Source: Chlamydiota bacterium (lineage in GTDB: Bacteria; Chlamydiota; Chlamydiia; Chlamydiales; JAAZZY01). Taken from it: DNA of 64,000 bases. Of the stretch, positions 47,683 through 61,780 are shown piece by piece. The position numbers were made by a program, and so were the translations under genes. Location of the stretch: assembly GCA_022601345.1 (NCBI GenBank), contig JAJACU010000038.1:15162-79161 (forward strand), written 5' to 3'. Each line of letters opens with the position of its first letter. Position 1 is the stretch's first letter. The notes under the pieces were generated by a model. It saw nothing but the letters and a program-made list of their open reading frames with translations. It was not told the origin of the DNA and did no database searches.

Positions 47683-49197
47683 ATGGTTAATGTTAGTTTA
47701 AATAGCAGCTCGATCTCAGGCTTACGATTTGGGCTCAAAAATCCTGTTGAAGAGTCTTCGTCGTGTTTTTATTTTGAGTTGTTCTCTCAAGGAATTAAAT
47801 TAGGCAGTCTGCTCAATGTTTCTCCTTTTGCTAAACTTGGTTTTTATGCACTAGGATTAATTTCTGGCATTGTTCAAAACAAAGAGTGTAAGCCAAAAAC
47901 AAGCTACTATAGCTTTAGTGAAGCTGCATTAGATATATCTAGATTTAGCTTTTCTCTATCTTCTTTAGTTCTTGCTTCAAGATATCAGAGGATTGTATAT
48001 TTTGCAGTCCAACCTATTTTTTCTCTCATTCAGCAATATCAAAGAGATAGTCTTTATGAAAGAAGTGCTTATAATGCAAAATTTGAAAAAGCCGTTAGTC
48101 AACAGAATTTTACAAAGTTCCAAGAGGCATTGGGTCAAATTGAGCCAAATAGTTACTTTGGGTCATATTCTTATTTCAACAAAAAACCAGTTTATACCCC
48201 TTTGGGACTAGTTGCTAGAAAGGGTAATGATCAACAAGCTAAAGTTTTAGTTGCTGCTGGAGCAAATCCAAGTCAGCGCTTAGGTATAAAAAAATTTTCT
48301 ATAACCCCTATTCAGCTTGCAGCAAAGATTGGAAATACAAAAGTTTTTTCTTTTTTTTGTCGCAAGTTTCCAAAAACCACTCAAGATGAAGCTCCTTTAG
48401 GTAAAACTTTATCTGAGTATGTTTTTTCAATACCTGTTGCGCATCATGCAATTTACAATGAGCTTGTAAAAGCAAAACCTACAACACCAGGGCATGTATT
48501 TCATCAAGCTGTCAATTATAAATTAGGTCTTAGTCCTAAAAAATCAATAAAAGTAGTACAAGCTTTGATGCAGAATAAAATTGGAAACCCACAAGATAAA
48601 GATCACTCAAACTTTACTCCTTTACATACGTTAGTCAGTATGCGTTATTTCTTTGAGCTTGTTCGCCCTAAGTTACATTTAGATTCAGAATTAGTTCTCG
48701 AAGTTCAGAGGTTTCAAAAAGAACAGGAAGCTGTAGCAGATATGGATAGCGCATCGCGGTTTATGATAGCCGTAATGGAACATAGTCATGAGCACACATT
48801 GGGAATGATTGATCTTTTGATTGCAAGTGGCATTGATGTTAATGCTCAAGATGTTTTTGGAAATTCAGCGCTTCATTGGGCTATGTACATAAATTCACAT
48901 CAAGATGTTATTGACGCTTTGAAAAGTGCAGGTGGCAATATGCAATTAAAAAATAATGCTGGTTGGACGCCCAAAAGAATACATGAAACCCTTCAAACTA
49001 TTAAATCAAAATTGCGAGCTGATTTTTCGAGCTTGCAAGCTGACTTTTCGAACTTAAAGCTTAGTATTGAAGAAATAGGTTTAGCTAATTTGAAACTTGG
49101 GACATATCAAGCAGCTTTTCGAAAATTTCCTGAAGAATACCAAAGGTCTATTTATCAGCGCTATAAAAAGGGCCTTAAAAAGTTAGCTAACCAATAG
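47683..49197 (+). CDS. Ankyrin-repeat protein with hydrophobic N-terminal region
   Basis: Ankyrin repeats (TPIQLAAKIGN, FTPLHTLV, GNSALHWAMYINSHQDVIDALKSAGGN, AGWTP). Hydrophobic pair in the first 130 aa. Confidence 0.85.
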   Translation: MVNVSLNSSSISGLRFGLKNPVEESSSCFYFELFSQGIKLGSLLNVSPFAKLGFYALGLISGIVQNKECKPKTSYYSFSEAALDISRFSFSLSSLVLASRYQRIVYFAVQPIFSLIQQYQRDSLYERSAYNAKFEKAVSQQNFTKFQEALGQIEPNSYFGSYSYFNKKPVYTPLGLVARKGNDQQAKVLVAAGANPSQRLGIKKFSITPIQLAAKIGNTKVFSFFCRKFPKTTQDEAPLGKTLSEYVFSIPVAHHAIYNELVKAKPTTPGHVFHQAVNYKLGLSPKKSIKVVQALMQNKIGNPQDKDHSNFTPLHTLVSMRYFFELVRPKLHLDSELVLEVQRFQKEQEAVADMDSASRFMIAVMEHSHEHTLGMIDLLIASGIDVNAQDVFGNSALHWAMYINSHQDVIDALKSAGGNMQLKNNAGWTPKRIHETLQTIKSKLRADFSSLQADFSNLKLSIEEIGLANLKLGTYQAAFRKFPEEYQRSIYQRYKKGLKKLANQ

Positions 49198-49309
49198 TGT
49201 GGCATATAGTTTAAATGCCCCTTCCTCTCTTAAAGCTAGAGTTAATGTGCCAAATCTTGCAAAAGATTTGCTCAGGTTTCAAAAAGTTCATAGGAAAAAT
49301 CCTAAAACC
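49188..49309 (+). repeat. Direct repeat copy B (~122 bp)
   Basis: Starts in the last codons of the ankyrin gene (TAACCAATAGTGTGGCATATAG) and ends 2 nt before the stop of the convergent 49311..49688 gene. Confidence 0.9.
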
Positions 49310-49310
49310 G

Positions 49311-49688
49311 TTACAAAAGAGCAGCTCCTACAACTGCTGCTGCCTTTAAAGTCGGAATTGCAGCGACAATTACTGGGGCTCCCACAAGAGTAACTGCTGC
49401 CGCAGTTGCTAATGAGCTTCCATAAACAATTTTCTCTTGTAAAGACATCTTCGAAAATCTTTGAGCAGCATCAATAGAAAAACGAGTCACAGTTTCTGAC
49501 ACTTGTTGAAAAGTTAGATTTACATAACACCAATTTCTGCACTTACCAATATTGACTCCAGGGCCCATTTTATTACAGCTCTTGAGACAACTTTGAAGAG
49601 GGGAGTCTGCTTTGGCGCTTGGAATGGTTGCAGCTAATGATAATGCTCCTAATGCTAAAGCTGAATTAACAGAATTTTTTACATGCAT
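49311..49688 (-). CDS. Small secreted/anchored twin-CX3C protein
   Basis: Signal peptide (ALALGALSLAATIPSAKA), SCLKSC-x11-CRNWC motif and an Ala/Val-rich C-terminal hydrophobic tail. Confidence 0.65.
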   Translation of the reverse strand: MHVKNSVNSALALGALSLAATIPSAKADSPLQSCLKSCNKMGPGVNIGKCRNWCYVNLTFQQVSETVTRFSIDAAQRFSKMSLQEKIVYGSSLATAAAVTLVGAPVIVAAIPTLKAAAVVGAALL

Positions 49689-49888
49689 TTGTGATGCTCC
49701 TTTTACGAGGTTGTTAAAAAATATCTCAGATTCCCTACCAGTTTAAGAATTGAGCAAAAAAAAAGCCAAGCACAAAATATAAAAGCAGCACCTGAAAGAA
49801 CTAATTGCCTTCCCAGGGTTAGAATATAGCTTTTAAATAGCAGTGGTTATAGACTTGGACGTAAATTGTTCAAACTATAAGGAAAATT

Positions 49889-59873: not shown

Positions 59874-60329
59874 TCAATTTTCTCTAAGTTTGGCAGCCAT
59901 TGGCACAAGGGTTGTAGTTGCAAGCAAAGTGGCAGCATGCAAGCCTACAGTGAATTTTGCTGAAAAGCTATAGGCCGCGCATAGCGGAATAATAGGGTAA
60001 GAAATCGCTAGAGGGACAATAGATGACAAGAAAACGTTGCGACATGTTTTTTCTAATCCTTCTGATGAGTAATCAAATAATGCGTAAGTTAATCCTAATA
60101 CAGCACCACTAGTAATTAAATCTGTTTCTACACTTGCAGTCATAGGTAAAGGATTATTTAAAGTTTGCCAAATAAAAAAAGAAGTCATGCTGCCAACGGC
60201 TACTTTTTTGACGGTATTAAGGAAGTCATTAACATTTTCTAAGGTGATCGAACTTGGTTTAGAAAAATGGCTTTCTTTCAAAGAATTTGAAACATTTAAA
60301 TTTGGATTATTTTTCAAGCAATCTAACAT
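59874..60329 (-). CDS. Hypothetical membrane protein (4 TM), Inc candidate
   Basis: Asn/Ser-rich N-terminus followed by four hydrophobic helices. Divergent from the ankyrin gene at 60387. Confidence 0.55.
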   Translation of the reverse strand: MLDCLKNNPNLNVSNSLKESHFSKPSSITLENVNDFLNTVKKVAVGSMTSFFIWQTLNNPLPMTASVETDLITSGAVLGLTYALFDYSSEGLEKTCRNVFLSSIVPLAISYPIIPLCAAYSFSAKFTVGLHAATLLATTTLVPMAAKLREN

Positions 60330-60386
60330 ATTTGCGTCCTTTTTTATTGATCCTTGAGTTTATATAAAAAATAGCACTGATCTACT

Positions 60387-61451
60387 TTGTTTAAAATAAA
60401 TTTATTAAAAATTGTATCTTCTGTGCTAATTCTATCACCTACCTTTTCTCAAACTGGAAAGATGGCTATACGAATACTTCCAAAGAAAGTAGAATCCTTG
60501 CAGTGTCCAGAAGCTATTGGAGAAATTATTGAAATGTCATCATTACCTATCAATCAGTTTTCAAGTATGGTTTCAAGTGCTACTTATTCTGATTGCTCGA
60601 ATATTTTATCTCAGAATGTTTTAATAAGCTATGCCAACTATTATTTCTCTATAGTTAGTGACTTTTCATATACTGAGTATCTTAAAGAGGTTGTTTGCAA
60701 AATTTTATTTGCAACTAGAGAATATAGCGAAAAAGACTTAGTAAATAAGTTGATAGGAAAAGGGACTGGGTTAATAGAAAAAATATCATCCTATTCTGAC
60801 CAAGCTCAACTAGGAGGAATTTCTTTAATTAAGATTCTTGCTTCTATTTCAAATCGTATGAAACATATAACATTAATTGGAGAAGCTGCTCGTTACGGAA
60901 TGGTTGAGGTTGTTGCAAAGCTTTTACAAAATAATGCAAATCCTGATGTTGGCAGTTGCCCTCCTTTTCATCGCGCTGCGATGGGAGCTTCAAGGGTTAA
61001 AGGAATAGAAGTTTTAAAACAGCAAAAAATCGCCAGACTTCTCCTTAAGCATGGTGCTCAAGTTGATTCAACAGACCTTCAAGGGAATACACCTTTACAT
61101 TTTTCTACTTACTCACCTTCTTTCTCAAAAATTTTAGTAGATGAGGGAGGGGCTTCTTTGAGTATATGGAACGGAGACGGATCAACACCATTAGACAATG
61201 CTCAATTTTCATCTTGGGTTTACCCTTCTGCTCAAAAGACCTCTGAATTTCTGAGTGAAAAAGGTGCGGAAAATGGGTTCTTTAGGACTCTAGCAAAAGA
61301 TACTAGTGTTGTTGTCTTTTGCGCAAATTATTTTTCATTTACATCTAAGTGGACCAAGGGTGCATTTTTAAAGCAGAGCTATACAGTGATATCTTACAAA
61401 ATTAACAACCTTTTTTATGATGCTTCCGGTGGCTGCATGGATCTTAGATGA
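60387..61451 (+). CDS. Ankyrin-repeat protein
   Basis: GEAARYGMVEVVAKLLQNNANPD, FHRAAMG, LLLKHGAQVDSTDLQGNTPLHFS and GDGSTPLDNA. A TTG start at 60387 would give a signal-peptide-like leader. The alternative ATG at 60462 is also possible. Confidence 0.8.
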   Translation: MFKINLLKIVSSVLILSPTFSQTGKMAIRILPKKVESLQCPEAIGEIIEMSSLPINQFSSMVSSATYSDCSNILSQNVLISYANYYFSIVSDFSYTEYLKEVVCKILFATREYSEKDLVNKLIGKGTGLIEKISSYSDQAQLGGISLIKILASISNRMKHITLIGEAARYGMVEVVAKLLQNNANPDVGSCPPFHRAAMGASRVKGIEVLKQQKIARLLLKHGAQVDSTDLQGNTPLHFSTYSPSFSKILVDEGGASLSIWNGDGSTPLDNAQFSSWVYPSAQKTSEFLSEKGAENGFFRTLAKDTSVVVFCANYFSFTSKWTKGAFLKQSYTVISYKINNLFYDASGGCMDLR

Positions 61452-61537
61452 CAAGCTTTCTTTTCAGTTGTTAAAAAACATAGATTTTTTCTATAAAAGT
61501 CTTACAATTCTATGTAAACTTCACAGTGGAGCTTGTT

Positions 61538-61780
61538 ATGAGCATGTCAGTTTCAAACTCACCATTTCCCGGATATAGCCCTGCTTTCAATGTTGGCGCC
61601 TCAAATATCCCCTCTATTCCCATAGCTATATTAACAATACTTTTGATGGGCCTTCCGACGGCATCGGCTGATGAACAAGCATATGCCAATTGTGTTCAAG
61701 AGTGTAAAGATGAAGGAGGTTCAGCATTAAAGTGTGGTCTTTTATGTGCTCCAGCTCTGGTCGCAGGTCTCAACTTCTAA
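61538..61780 (+). CDS. Small twin-CX3C protein with signal-anchor
   Basis: GGAG RBS 6 nt upstream of ATG 61538 (the track uses GTG 61526). IPSIPIAILTILLMGLPTASA leader and NCVQEC-x9-CGLLC motif. Confidence 0.65.
   Translation: MSMSVSNSPFPGYSPAFNVGASNIPSIPIAILTILLMGLPTASADEQAYANCVQECKDEGGSALKCGLLCAPALVAGLNF

Follow-up and report, generated by a model that had tools for sequence, protein, structure and literature searches.

The stretch of DNA analysed here (hereafter the window) is 64 kb long and comes from a MAG of an uncultured chlamydial organism. It carries three small ORFs, named A, B and C, each with two CX3C motifs, and several ankyrin genes (Table 1). The first-pass annotation had listed these ORFs with their four-cysteine motifs and had placed each near an ankyrin gene. 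All three ORFs and motifs were verified in the sequence, Pfam verified ankyrin repeats in the three neighbours (ANK3 in its longer ORF, 60387..61451), and the geometry, i.e. convergent, upstream or downstream, is as the annotation described it. Note that the mechanical ORF of ANK3 starts at TTG 60387, while an alignment with orthologues favours ATG 60534. Similarly, a GTG-extended version of C begins at 61526, and the NCBI annotation gives 80 aa. In NCBI the window MAG goes by the name 'Chlamydiae bacterium', with locus tags S4CHLAM6_13830, _13910 and _13970. ANK2 has an N-terminal Pro/Gly module in common with ORF 58816..59574 (module HMM). The ParA-like fragments were recognized by AAA_31 on the 71-aa product and by a PHROG ParA-like match (E 3.6e-8).

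Table 1. Twin-CX3C genes, ankyrin genes and the ParA remnant in the studied part of the window
Feature	Position	Strand	Length	Motif or arrangement	Evidence
ANK1, ankyrin gene	47683..49197	+		convergent with A, 113 nt between stop codons	Pfam
A, A-type twin-CX3C gene	49311..49688	-	125 aa	SC-LKS-C x11 C-RNW-C	
Fourth ankyrin gene	52169..52714	-			Pfam Ank_2, E 3.5e-9
ANK2, ankyrin gene	54832..56088	-		downstream of B, same strand	Pfam
ParA-like fragments	56176..56551	+		two overlapping ORFs between ANK2 and B	
B, B-type twin-CX3C gene	56649..56933	-	94 aa	NC-KNS-C x9 C-LIQ-C	
ANK3, ankyrin gene	60534..61451	+		86 nt upstream of C, same strand	Pfam Ank families
C, C-type twin-CX3C gene	61538..61780	+	80 aa	NC-VQE-C x9 C-GLL-C	

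Twin-CX3C genes and their relatives

Is the repeated motif expected by chance in a sequence of this length? To answer this, the pattern C-x3-C-x(6-16)-C-x3-C was scanned in six frames over the 64-kb window. Five matches were found, and A, B and C are the only three that lie inside ORFs, taken from stop to stop, of 60 aa or more, compared with 0.03 +/- 0.17 such ORFs in shuffled sequence. The motif common to the three is CX3C-X9/11-CX3C, and when eight family modules are aligned, the only invariant columns are the four cysteines and one loop Gly. The recurrence of the motif exceeds chance.

A, B and C are real genes for small proteins. They are read as coding because the homologues keep the ORF length (in the B and C types), because of the dN/dS values, and because Shine-Dalgarno motifs lie upstream of A and of the C-type genes. 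The ATG of A follows AAGGAG at 8 nt and that of C follows GGAG at 12 nt, and the ATG of the C orthologues is preceded by AGGAGG or AGGAG. These orthologues, at loci L011 and L003 (P0006 in the latter), have 66% and about 40% identity to C, and dN/dS of the C type against them is 0.18 and 0.24; the C-type gene is thus under purifying selection, with dN/dS about 0.2. For B, dN/dS is 0.62, and its homologue P0004 at locus L002 is 52% identical and likewise 94 aa long.

A profile search, the kind of check that the first-pass annotation had suggested for Chlamydiae proteomes, was run over 1.84 billion proteins and extended the family by three further relatives only: two chlamydial proteins and a marine lipoprotein, P0005, with three tandem CX3C modules and the lipobox LTLGC. 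As found here, the family counts seven proteins from four chlamydial assemblies and the marine lipoprotein. The impression that this twin-CX3C motif has no named bacterial family was borne out, with no match of A, B or C in Pfam, NCBIfam, PADLOC or PHROGs. Judging from BLASTP, B and C are paralogues (E 0.005; 6e-4 for the L002 homologue of B against C). A scores 7.5 bits against a profile of B and C only, with an E of 0.039 in a set of 175 ORFs; of 500 shuffles with the cysteines fixed, 26 reach this score or a higher one (p about 0.05). Its resemblance to B and C appears marginal once the cysteine pattern is discounted, and neither the profile search nor further searches found a homologue of A elsewhere. 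Its kinship is therefore uncertain, and A may either be distantly related to B and C or resemble them by convergence.

Predicted fold and cysteine chemistry

The three proteins differ in their N-termini. A starts with a canonical Sec-type signal peptide (..SAKA, then DS after the cleavage point). Its hydrophobic segments span residues 9-25 and 92-125, and the 34 aa that follow CLKSC-x11-CRNWC are Ala/Val-rich and hydrophobic. In C, an uncharged Ser/Pro-rich N-terminus leads into a hydrophobic segment, a conserved A-S-A-D and a 36-aa cysteine region consisting of CVQEC-x9-CGLLC and a hydrophobic tail; the cleavage-like site after the hydrophobic segment reads A/S-S-A-D across the orthologues. 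The early view that two of the three proteins carry a signal peptide or signal anchor is supported by the signal peptide of A and the hydrophobic segment of C, but no positive charge occurs among the first 44 residues of the C-type protein, and this is unusual in a Sec signal. In B there is no hydrophobic window (KD >= 1.6) and no export segment, and P0004 has a single hydrophobic window, 62-76, which overlaps the cysteine motif.

AlphaFold2 places the CX3C pairs of B and C on two consecutive helices with a 4-residue loop between them (helices 48-62 and 67-73 in C, numbered on the 84-aa ORF; 49-64 and 69-81 in B). These models rest on 3-5 sequences and have low confidence, with pLDDT about 50-70 in the motif and whole-model means of 52 and 50.5. 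When the family profile was compared with PDB sequences, the best three matches were Ole e 6 (E 0.01), the vicilin hairpinin Jug r 2 (0.08) and the kappa-conotoxin vil14a (0.4), all of them disulfide-stapled CX3C hairpins and all marginal. Foldseek gave local matches to thionins and Ole e 6 at 0.6-1.3 A rmsd. None of the matches to known hairpins reaches statistical significance, the best E being 0.01 by sequence and 2.8 by Foldseek. The cysteine hairpin of the first-pass annotation is thus supported by a predicted helix-loop-helix with one CX3C on each helix, but only at low confidence and with marginal PDB matches. On the whole, A, B and C encode a rare, unnamed four-cysteine helix-loop-helix mini-protein family in an uncultured chlamydial genome, and we infer an alpha-hairpinin-like scaffold, here in bacteria.

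The module would then work as an alpha-hairpinin (Cs-alpha/alpha) scaffold. An export step is hinted at by the signal peptide of A, by the hydrophobic segment and A/S-S-A-D of the C type and by the lipobox of the marine relative; cleavage before the D of that C-type site would yield a 36-aa mature peptide. In the exported module, disulfides C1-C4 and C2-C3 would clamp two antiparallel helices together as a small domain, compact and stable, and in A and C the hydrophobic C-terminal stretch would anchor the hairpin at the membrane. Since B lacks an export signal of any kind, metal binding by its cysteines is conceivable, or they may remain reduced. One could then ask whether the four cysteines, at least in B-type proteins, hold a metal (Zn, Cu or an Fe-S cluster) rather than pair in disulfides. 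B and P0004, which have no hydrophobic export segment, would sit in a reducing compartment, P0005 has a weak match to Vanabin-2 (E 0.11), and reduced twin-CX3C small Tims are reported to bind zinc before oxidation. However, A, the C type and P0005 have export or lipoprotein signals, a helix with CX3C is the classic geometry for a disulfide staple, and the best matches are disulfide hairpins, so that metal binding is improbable.

Comparison with known hairpins

The closest known scaffold is that of the plant alpha-hairpinins, which have a C1X3C2-Xn-C3X3C4 motif and a helix-loop-helix with two disulfides (PMC4695807). Examples are Ec-AMP1, MBP-1, the vicilin-derived Jug r 2 and MiAMP2 peptides and the trypsin inhibitors VhTI and BWI-2c. 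They have the same motif and the same helix-loop-helix that two disulfides would staple in the chlamydial family; Jug r 2 is the second-best PDB match of the family profile, and P0005 is multimodular as hairpinin precursors are. However, the homology is not significant (E 0.08), the host is a bacterium, A and C have hydrophobic N- and C-terminal segments, and the C-type gene is coupled in the genome to an ankyrin gene. The mature C peptides also differ in charge (net -3, -3 and 0), while alpha-hairpinin antimicrobials are Lys/Arg-rich (PMC4695807). This difference, together with the absence of a modifying enzyme, peptidase-ABC exporter or radical-SAM gene conserved alongside and of any PADLOC or PHROG match, makes it very improbable that the small ORFs are precursors of antimicrobial or toxin peptides (bacteriocin- or RiPP-like) with the ankyrin protein as immunity or maturation factor, even though the C type has a leader-plus-core layout, with a 36-aa cysteine peptide after a conserved cleavage-like site, and the scaffold is like that of antimicrobial peptides from plants and of animal toxins.

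Ole e 6 (olive pollen allergen, PDB 1SS3), the best sequence match, shares the CX3C-X9-CX3C spacing, has an aromatic residue three positions N-terminal to C1 and Gly in its loop, as the family does, and is listed by Foldseek at 1.3 A over 31 columns. It is, however, a plant protein with six cysteines and its marginal E-value is driven by cysteines; the resemblance is most likely convergence. The small Tims (Tim8, 9, 10 and 13; Pfam zf-Tim10_DDP) likewise have twin CX3C on a helical hairpin, and the proteins are of similar size. Their loop has 11-16 residues, while the chlamydial loop has 9-11; A and C have signal-type N-termini, the Pfam family is not matched at E <= 0.1, and no Tim chain is among the PDB matches at E <= 10. 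The Cs-alpha/alpha toxins (kappa-conotoxin vil14a and kappa-hefutoxins) share the four-cysteine helical hairpin pattern, with vil14a as the third-best, non-significant match, but they are peptides of 22-35 aa secreted by venom glands, and no channel-blocking residues are inferable in the chlamydial family.

Pairing with ankyrin genes

There is a further question, why does each twin-CX3C gene lie near an ankyrin gene? The first-pass annotation explained this by a duplicated two-gene module rather than by chance, such that an ancestral ankyrin plus twin-CX3C module was duplicated three times in 14 kb and each hairpin serves its own ankyrin partner. It is true that none of the CX3C genes is more than one (pseudo)gene away from an ankyrin gene, and the C/ANK3 pair is conserved in other genomes. 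How significant the pairing is varies with the null model. With the ParA remnant left out of the gene count, gene-order permutation gives P = 0.005 for the whole window, in favour of the module, and 0.045 at 45-64 kb; with the remnant counted, the values are 0.036 and 0.26. Against the module, ANK1, ANK2 and ANK3 are unrelated outside their repeats (the sole BLASTP match is 53 aa, ANK1 against ANK3), the three arrangements differ in orientation and spacing, and A scarcely resembles B and C. Furthermore, 6 of the about 64 genes in the window are ankyrin genes and half of these have no CX3C partner, namely 1578..2615, 33745..35004 and the fourth gene of Table 1, all three overlooked at first pass; the last is a counter-example to obligatory pairing. 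The only homologue of B, at L002, lies on a contig of just 2.4 kb, and the 1.7 kb available upstream of it holds no ankyrin gene. The claim that the three pairs are copies of one module is thus not supported, and a three-fold duplication is quite improbable. The adjacency of A to ANK1 and of B to ANK2 is best put down to how densely ankyrin genes and other lineage-specific genes lie in this region.

The proposed C-type/ANK3 cassette

The C-type gene is another matter. In three chlamydial genomes it lies 3' of an orthologous ANK3-type gene and in the same orientation, with gaps of 86, 96 and 198/91 nt. ANK3 has near full-length homologues at L011 (5974..6921, 62%) and L003 (8882..9802, 42%; 10344..11345, 36%), and its dN/dS against L011 is 0.34. 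At L003 the C-type gene is flanked by two ANK3-type genes, while elsewhere the order is ANK3 type, then C type. By tblastx the L011 and L003 loci have nothing else in common with the window and the flanks are unrelated; in none of the three genomes does a terminator-like site separate the two genes. C-type and ANK3-type genes are therefore a recurrent gene pair, the only truly coupled one of the three, and we read them as a conserved two-gene cassette that is probably co-transcribed. A bacterial precedent is katB-ankB of Pseudomonas aeruginosa, where an ankyrin gene is co-transcribed with a partner gene. There too an ankyrin gene and a functionally linked neighbour make up a two-gene unit, but the chlamydial partner is a tiny cysteine-hairpin protein instead of an enzyme, the ankyrin gene comes first, and co-transcription is only presumed.

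Are the two products functionally linked? ANK3 has no signal peptide and, unlike A and C, no export-type hydrophobic segment, so the products of ANK3 and C may never meet; if C is periplasmic, they would be in different compartments, and a physical interaction between them is hypothetical. A, B and C might then simply be cysteine proteins of the envelope or periplasm, like the small Cys-rich components of the outer-membrane complex in chlamydiae, with the C/ANK3 adjacency inherited as synteny among fairly close relatives. The pair is seen in just three genomes, and ankyrin genes are common here. However, it persists at 40-66% protein identity though every flanking gene differs, the ankyrin duplication around the small gene at L003 left it unseparated, and four cysteines without a lipobox are unlike OmcA-type proteins. 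We regard the absence of a functional link as rather unlikely.

Intracellular bacteria typically secrete their ankyrin proteins as effectors, and another scenario is that type III secretion delivers both ANK3 and the small proteins to the host, with the hairpin in the inclusion or host membrane or in an oxidising host compartment and the ankyrin protein acting beside it. The N-termini of the C type (44 residues), the B type and ANK3 carry little or no charge and are Ser/Pro/Asn-rich, and the L003 cassette adjoins sctU, sctV, copN, a CesT chaperone gene and a RING-variant protein gene. Nevertheless, this is clearly unlikely: there is no Inc-type bilobed hydrophobic domain, no T3SS genes lie near the pair in the window or at L011, and the host cytosol is reducing, so the disulfide staple would not form there.

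The best joint explanation, which we hold with moderate confidence, is that these genes encode an alpha-hairpinin-like module, that only the C type is coupled to an ankyrin gene, in the cassette with ANK3, and that the A/ANK1 and B/ANK2 neighbourhoods come from gene density. The products of ANK3 and the C-type gene would then act in the same host-interface process.

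Small twin-CX3C genes and their family

The three small genes A, B and C described in the first-pass annotation were borne out, with their four-cysteine motifs and at the coordinates claimed (Table); their NCBI locus tags in this MAG ('Chlamydiae bacterium') are S4CHLAM6_13830, _13910 and _13970. A six-frame scan of the 64 kb for C-x3-C-x(6-16)-C-x3-C gave five matches, and only those of A, B and C fall within ORFs that run 60 aa or more from stop to stop; shuffled sequence gives 0.03 +/- 0.17 such ORFs. With a looser pattern, the extra matches in the window were all out-of-frame or antisense ORFs. 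Are these ORFs genes? The dN/dS of the C-type gene is 0.18 and 0.24 against its counterparts in two other chlamydial loci (L011 and L003, respectively), which indicates purifying selection, and the C-type genes are preceded by GGAG, AGGAGG or AGGAG. The length of B is exactly kept in its homologue, with a dN/dS of 0.62 indicating weaker constraint than in the C-type. Conservation and dN/dS rule out spurious ORFs for B and C. For A, AAGGAG stands 8 nt before the ATG.

Table. Features of the window and of related loci (window coordinates unless a locus is named)
Feature	Coordinates	Strand	Description
A	49311..49688	-	125 aa; SCLKSC-NKMGPGVNIGK-CRNWC
B	56649..56933	-	94 aa; NCKNSC-FLWGKAAAG-CLIQC
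C	61538..61780	+	80 aa; NCVQEC-KDEGGSALK-CGLLC; mechanical ORF start GTG 61526
ANK1, beside A	47683..49197		Pfam ankyrin repeats
ANK2, beside B	54832..56088	-	Pfam ankyrin repeats
ANK3, beside C	60387..61451		Pfam ankyrin repeats; longest ORF starts TTG 60387
Other ankyrin genes	52169..52714, 1578..2615, 33745..35004		Pfam ankyrin repeats
ParA-like fragments	56176..56551	+	Between ANK2 and B
120-aa ORF	52910..53272	-	Hypothetical; weak DUF4430 match
252-aa ORF	58816..59574	-	
151-aa ORF	59874..60329	-	Divergent from ANK3
2OG-Fe(II) oxygenases	39322..40203, 53634..54665		
Class I methyltransferase	43326..44180		
Putative O-methyltransferase	45323..46381		Assigned by eye
MTA/SAH-nucleosidase-like PNP_UDP_1 protein	51219..51983		
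BAAT-type acyl-CoA thioesterase	57257..58603		
Relative of 120-aa ORF	L002 307..666		29% identity; 1.1 kb from B-like gene
Tn3-transposase and HTH fragments	L002 983..1526		Beside B-type gene
Ankyrin, CX3C and ankyrin genes with adjoining genes	L003 1..11345		
Histidine-phosphatase-domain protein	L011 7430..8530	-	Directly after C-type gene
P0004 (B-like)			94 aa; 52% identity to B
P0006 (C-like)			83 aa; ~40% identity to C
P0005	L007 1306..1992; also L008-L010		228-aa lipoprotein, marine metagenomes; lipobox LTLGC; three tandem modules

The first-pass annotation knew of no named bacterial family with this motif, and this held: A, B and C had no match in Pfam (E <= 0.1), NCBIfam, PADLOC or PHROGs. 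On the surrounding region PADLOC and PHROGs gave generic ankyrin matches only, and Rfam gave no RNA family in 46-64 kb. The profile search for further members that it had proposed was made with the three sequences against 1.84 billion representative proteins and used no word index. Few more were found: besides the queries only P0004, P0006 and P0005 were returned. A seventh protein, an 81-aa C-type with 66% identity to C, is encoded in L011. The motif C1X3C2-(X)n-C3X3C4 occurs in all six chlamydial proteins and three times in P0005. In an alignment of eight modules, the four cysteines and one loop glycine are the only invariant columns, and an aromatic residue usually stands three positions before C1. 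Word-indexed homology searches with C alone, the three-sequence profile or an eight-sequence profile recovered only the window's own proteins, P0004 and P0006. A metagenome scan by the C-type alignment found no match, the same scan by the ANK3 alignment gave just an unrelated high-GC ankyrin protein (L012), and tblastn of B and C against plasmids gave no meaningful match. The family is very rare, with chlamydial members in four assemblies of uncultured organisms.

The non-chlamydial P0005 repeats the module Y-x-x-C-L-x-x-C-x-x-x-G-G-T-F-T-S-C-H-x-T-C. Its three CX3C-X9-CX3C copies are spaced by acidic linkers, and no ankyrin gene is found near its gene. From P0005 it is clear that the module is not confined to Chlamydiae, and that elsewhere it occurs as an extracytoplasmic repeat.

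Are the three small genes copies of one another, as was first supposed? For two of them the supposition stood. B matches C by BLASTP at E 0.005, the L002 homologue of B matches C at 6e-4, and the likeness reaches into the N-terminal region; by sequence, B and C are paralogues. Against a profile of B- and C-types only, A scores 7.5 bits (E 0.039 among 175 ORFs), a score equalled or exceeded by 26 of 500 shuffles with the cysteines fixed (p ~0.05). No homologue of A or other locus was found elsewhere, and its place in the B/C family is doubtful.

One conserved cassette and two neighbours

Pfam repeats confirm that an ankyrin gene lies beside each of the small genes. Do the pairs represent a true three-fold ankyrin and CX3C module, duplicated as the first-pass annotation suggested? 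Between ANK2 and B lie ORFs that are ParA-like fragments. If this ParA remnant is disregarded as a gene, each of the three small genes is adjacent to an ankyrin gene, with a probability by chance of 0.005 in the whole window and 0.045 within 45-64 kb; if it is included, the values are 0.036 and 0.26. The statistical support from the window is thus soft. In all-against-all BLASTP the sole match among the three ankyrin partners covers 53 aa of repeats in ANK1 and ANK3 (E 5e-4), with no kinship outside the repeats. The geometry differs in each pair: A is convergent with its partner, B lies upstream on the same strand across the ParA remnant, and C lies downstream on the same strand. Half of the ankyrin genes in the window (3/6) have no CX3C partner. 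Since the ankyrin genes are unrelated outside their repeats, the geometries are three and half of the ankyrin genes are unpaired, the duplicated module is unsupported.

What stood of the proposed pairing is that of C with ANK3. Homologues of ANK3 near full length are found at both other C-type loci. L003, on a 463-kb chlamydial contig, has an ankyrin gene (306 aa), the C-type gene and another ankyrin gene (333 aa) on one strand, the ankyrin proteins having 42% and 36% identity to ANK3; in L011, from a MAG of SRP301943, an ankyrin gene (315 aa, 62% identity) is followed after 96 nt by the C-type gene. The rival reading here is pure synteny. By tblastx, the 20-kb and 13-kb loci have no other match to the 64-kb window, and the flanks are sctU, sctV, copN, a CesT chaperone gene, a RING-variant protein gene and ychF in L003, parB, rplU, rpmA, obg and an ABC transporter in L011, and lineage-specific hypothetical genes in the window. 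Because the two genes recur in three genomes with order and strand unchanged but with differing flanks, ANK3-type followed by C-type is a conserved cassette. No terminator-like site was found between them in any of the three genomes, in promoter and terminator scans that performed at chance level. The pair is probably co-transcribed.

The three orthologues of ANK3 align only from Met50, so its first 49 codons are probably untranslated, and the true start is probably ATG 60534. In L003 the ankyrin, CX3C and ankyrin genes directly adjoin sctU, sctV, copN, the CesT-type chaperone gene and the gene of the 351-aa RING-variant protein, which looks like a eukaryotic-type E3 ligase.

The only second locus of the B-type is L002, a contig of 2.4 kb where transposase fragments occur together with a relative of the 120-aa ORF in the window; no ankyrin gene is found in the 1.7 kb upstream of its B-like gene. 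In both genomes the B-type adjoins decayed mobile-DNA genes. Because the 120-aa ORF has its relative near the B-like gene of L002, the neighbour that the B-type has kept better may be this ORF rather than an ankyrin gene.

The juxtapositions of A with ANK1 and B with ANK2 may well be no more than a consequence of lying in a stretch of lineage-specific genes where ankyrin genes are many, a reading that shares the evenly balanced probability of our preferred explanation. Elsewhere the window has the genes of an ordinary chromosome, leuS and a Kdo transferase among them. Adjacency within an island rich in one gene family is weak evidence, and it was the comparison across genomes that set one real pairing apart from two probable coincidences.

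Several other features of the island should be noticed. ANK2 and the 252-aa ORF have a common N-terminal module of about 90 aa (..F.PPP..G.G..F.P.FNQ..F..), and a similar N-terminus is found on the histidine-phosphatase-domain protein of L011; this has the look of a shared module for targeting or secretion, joined to varied cargo domains. Enzymes of small-molecule-tailoring type are unusually dense around the island (39322..46381 and 51219..58603). The 151-aa ORF is rich in hydrophobic stretches, has no family match and may encode a membrane protein, possibly Inc-like.

Predicted fold and localization

Until now the CX3C-Xn-CX3C hairpin has been described in defence peptides of plants, in proteins of pollen and seeds, in the toxins of animals and in the small Tims of mitochondria. 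In the family libraries and literature searched, no bacterial family with this scaffold tied to an ankyrin gene is described, and literature searches on twin-CX3C or hairpinin families of bacteria gave no relevant result. AlphaFold2 models, built on shallow alignments and of low confidence (mean pLDDT 52.1 for C and 50.5 for B), place the two CX3C motifs on consecutive helices with a four-residue loop between, at 48-62 and 67-73 in C (numbered from the GTG start; pLDDT about 70 in this block) and 49-64 and 69-81 in B. Neither model had a significant match in PDB by Foldseek; short, non-significant matches of C, at 0.6-1.3 A, were to thionins, viscotoxins and Ole e 6. When the family profile was run against every PDB sequence, the leading matches were, in this order, Ole e 6 (E 0.01), the vicilin hairpinin of Jug r 2 (E 0.08) and kappa-conotoxin vil14a (E 0.4). 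They are marginal and cysteine-driven, and the proteins matched are all disulfide-stapled CX3C helical hairpins. Ole e 6 has the identical spacing, CX3C-X9-CX3C, with a Gly-containing loop. Pfam Vicilin_N matches P0005 only (E 0.097). We read these matches as the same scaffold and claim no homology to those hairpins. Homology to small Tims was rejected, with no zf-Tim10_DDP (no Pfam match at E <= 0.1) and no Tim chain among the PDB matches at E <= 10. The alpha-hairpinin (Cs-alpha/alpha) class is defined by the motif C1X3C2-(X)n-C3X3C4 (PMC4695807), common to the chlamydial proteins and P0005. In that class the helix-loop-helix is antiparallel, each helix bears one CX3C, and the disulfides join C1 to C4 and C2 to C3. 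Its defence peptides are rich in Lys and Arg (PMC4695807), whereas the putative mature C-type peptides have net charges of -3, -3 and 0.

The first-pass annotation gave two of the three small proteins a signal peptide or anchor. That part agrees with the sequences. In A, residues 9-25 form a hydrophobic segment that ends in SAKA|DS, by sequence a textbook signal peptide, and the C-terminus is a hydrophobic, Ala/Val-rich stretch of 34 residues. In the C-types, none of the first 43-45 residues is charged, and the hydrophobic stretch that follows (KD >= 1.6 in two of three) ends in a conserved A/S-S-A-D, after which come 36 residues, the second half hydrophobic. The B-types are without such an N-terminal segment. 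These segments and the P0005 lipobox make export of A, the C-types and P0005 plausible, and disulfide formation with it. Metal binding by the cysteines and delivery as T3SS effectors are rival readings. Two known chlamydial types were rejected. The bilobed hydrophobic domain of Inc-type proteins (about 40-60 residues) is absent from the C-type and B: the C-types have one segment of 24-28 residues and a C-terminus of 15-19 residues with about 20 polar residues between, and B has none. A, B and C have no lipobox, unlike OmcA-type lipoproteins.

Interpretation

Then what could these proteins be? With about an even chance of being right, we take them for a family, rare and lineage-restricted, of four-Cys helix-loop-helix mini-proteins that are exported or tethered to a membrane. 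They would act in the manner of alpha-hairpinins, each a compact hairpin held by two disulfide staples. One subtype, the C-type, is kept together with one particular ankyrin protein in a cassette of two genes. The analysis shows the cassette, the coding constraint, the family and its motif; the disulfides, export, co-transcription and any interaction of ANK3 with the hairpin are inferred. A bacteriocin and immunity pair is another reading of a two-gene unit. A RiPP or bacteriocin precursor was rejected: the neighbours are ankyrin, hydrolase and hypothetical genes, none but ANK3 conserved across the three genomes, and no maturase, exporter or immunity gene of known type is among them.

An extension of our preferred explanation, which we consider improbable, is that the ANK3-type and C-type products interact at the host interface, the disulfide-stapled, membrane-tethered hairpin being bound or positioned by its dedicated ankyrin protein. 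If true, this would be the first bacterial family with an alpha-hairpinin-like scaffold, and its members would be small effectors or partners of a new type. The Mia40 relay of mitochondria oxidises and traps the twin-CX3C small Tims; in a bolder version, the B-type, having no export signal, would be delivered to the host and there be oxidised and trapped by this relay too.

The immediate biological reach is narrow because the family is so rare. If fold and disulfides are confirmed, the CX3C-Xn-CX3C helical hairpin would be extended to bacteria, with a new small-protein family for Pfam and NCBIfam. To our knowledge, the ligands of bacterial ankyrin-repeat proteins are almost never known, and the ANK3-type/C-type pair offers a concrete candidate partner for one of them.
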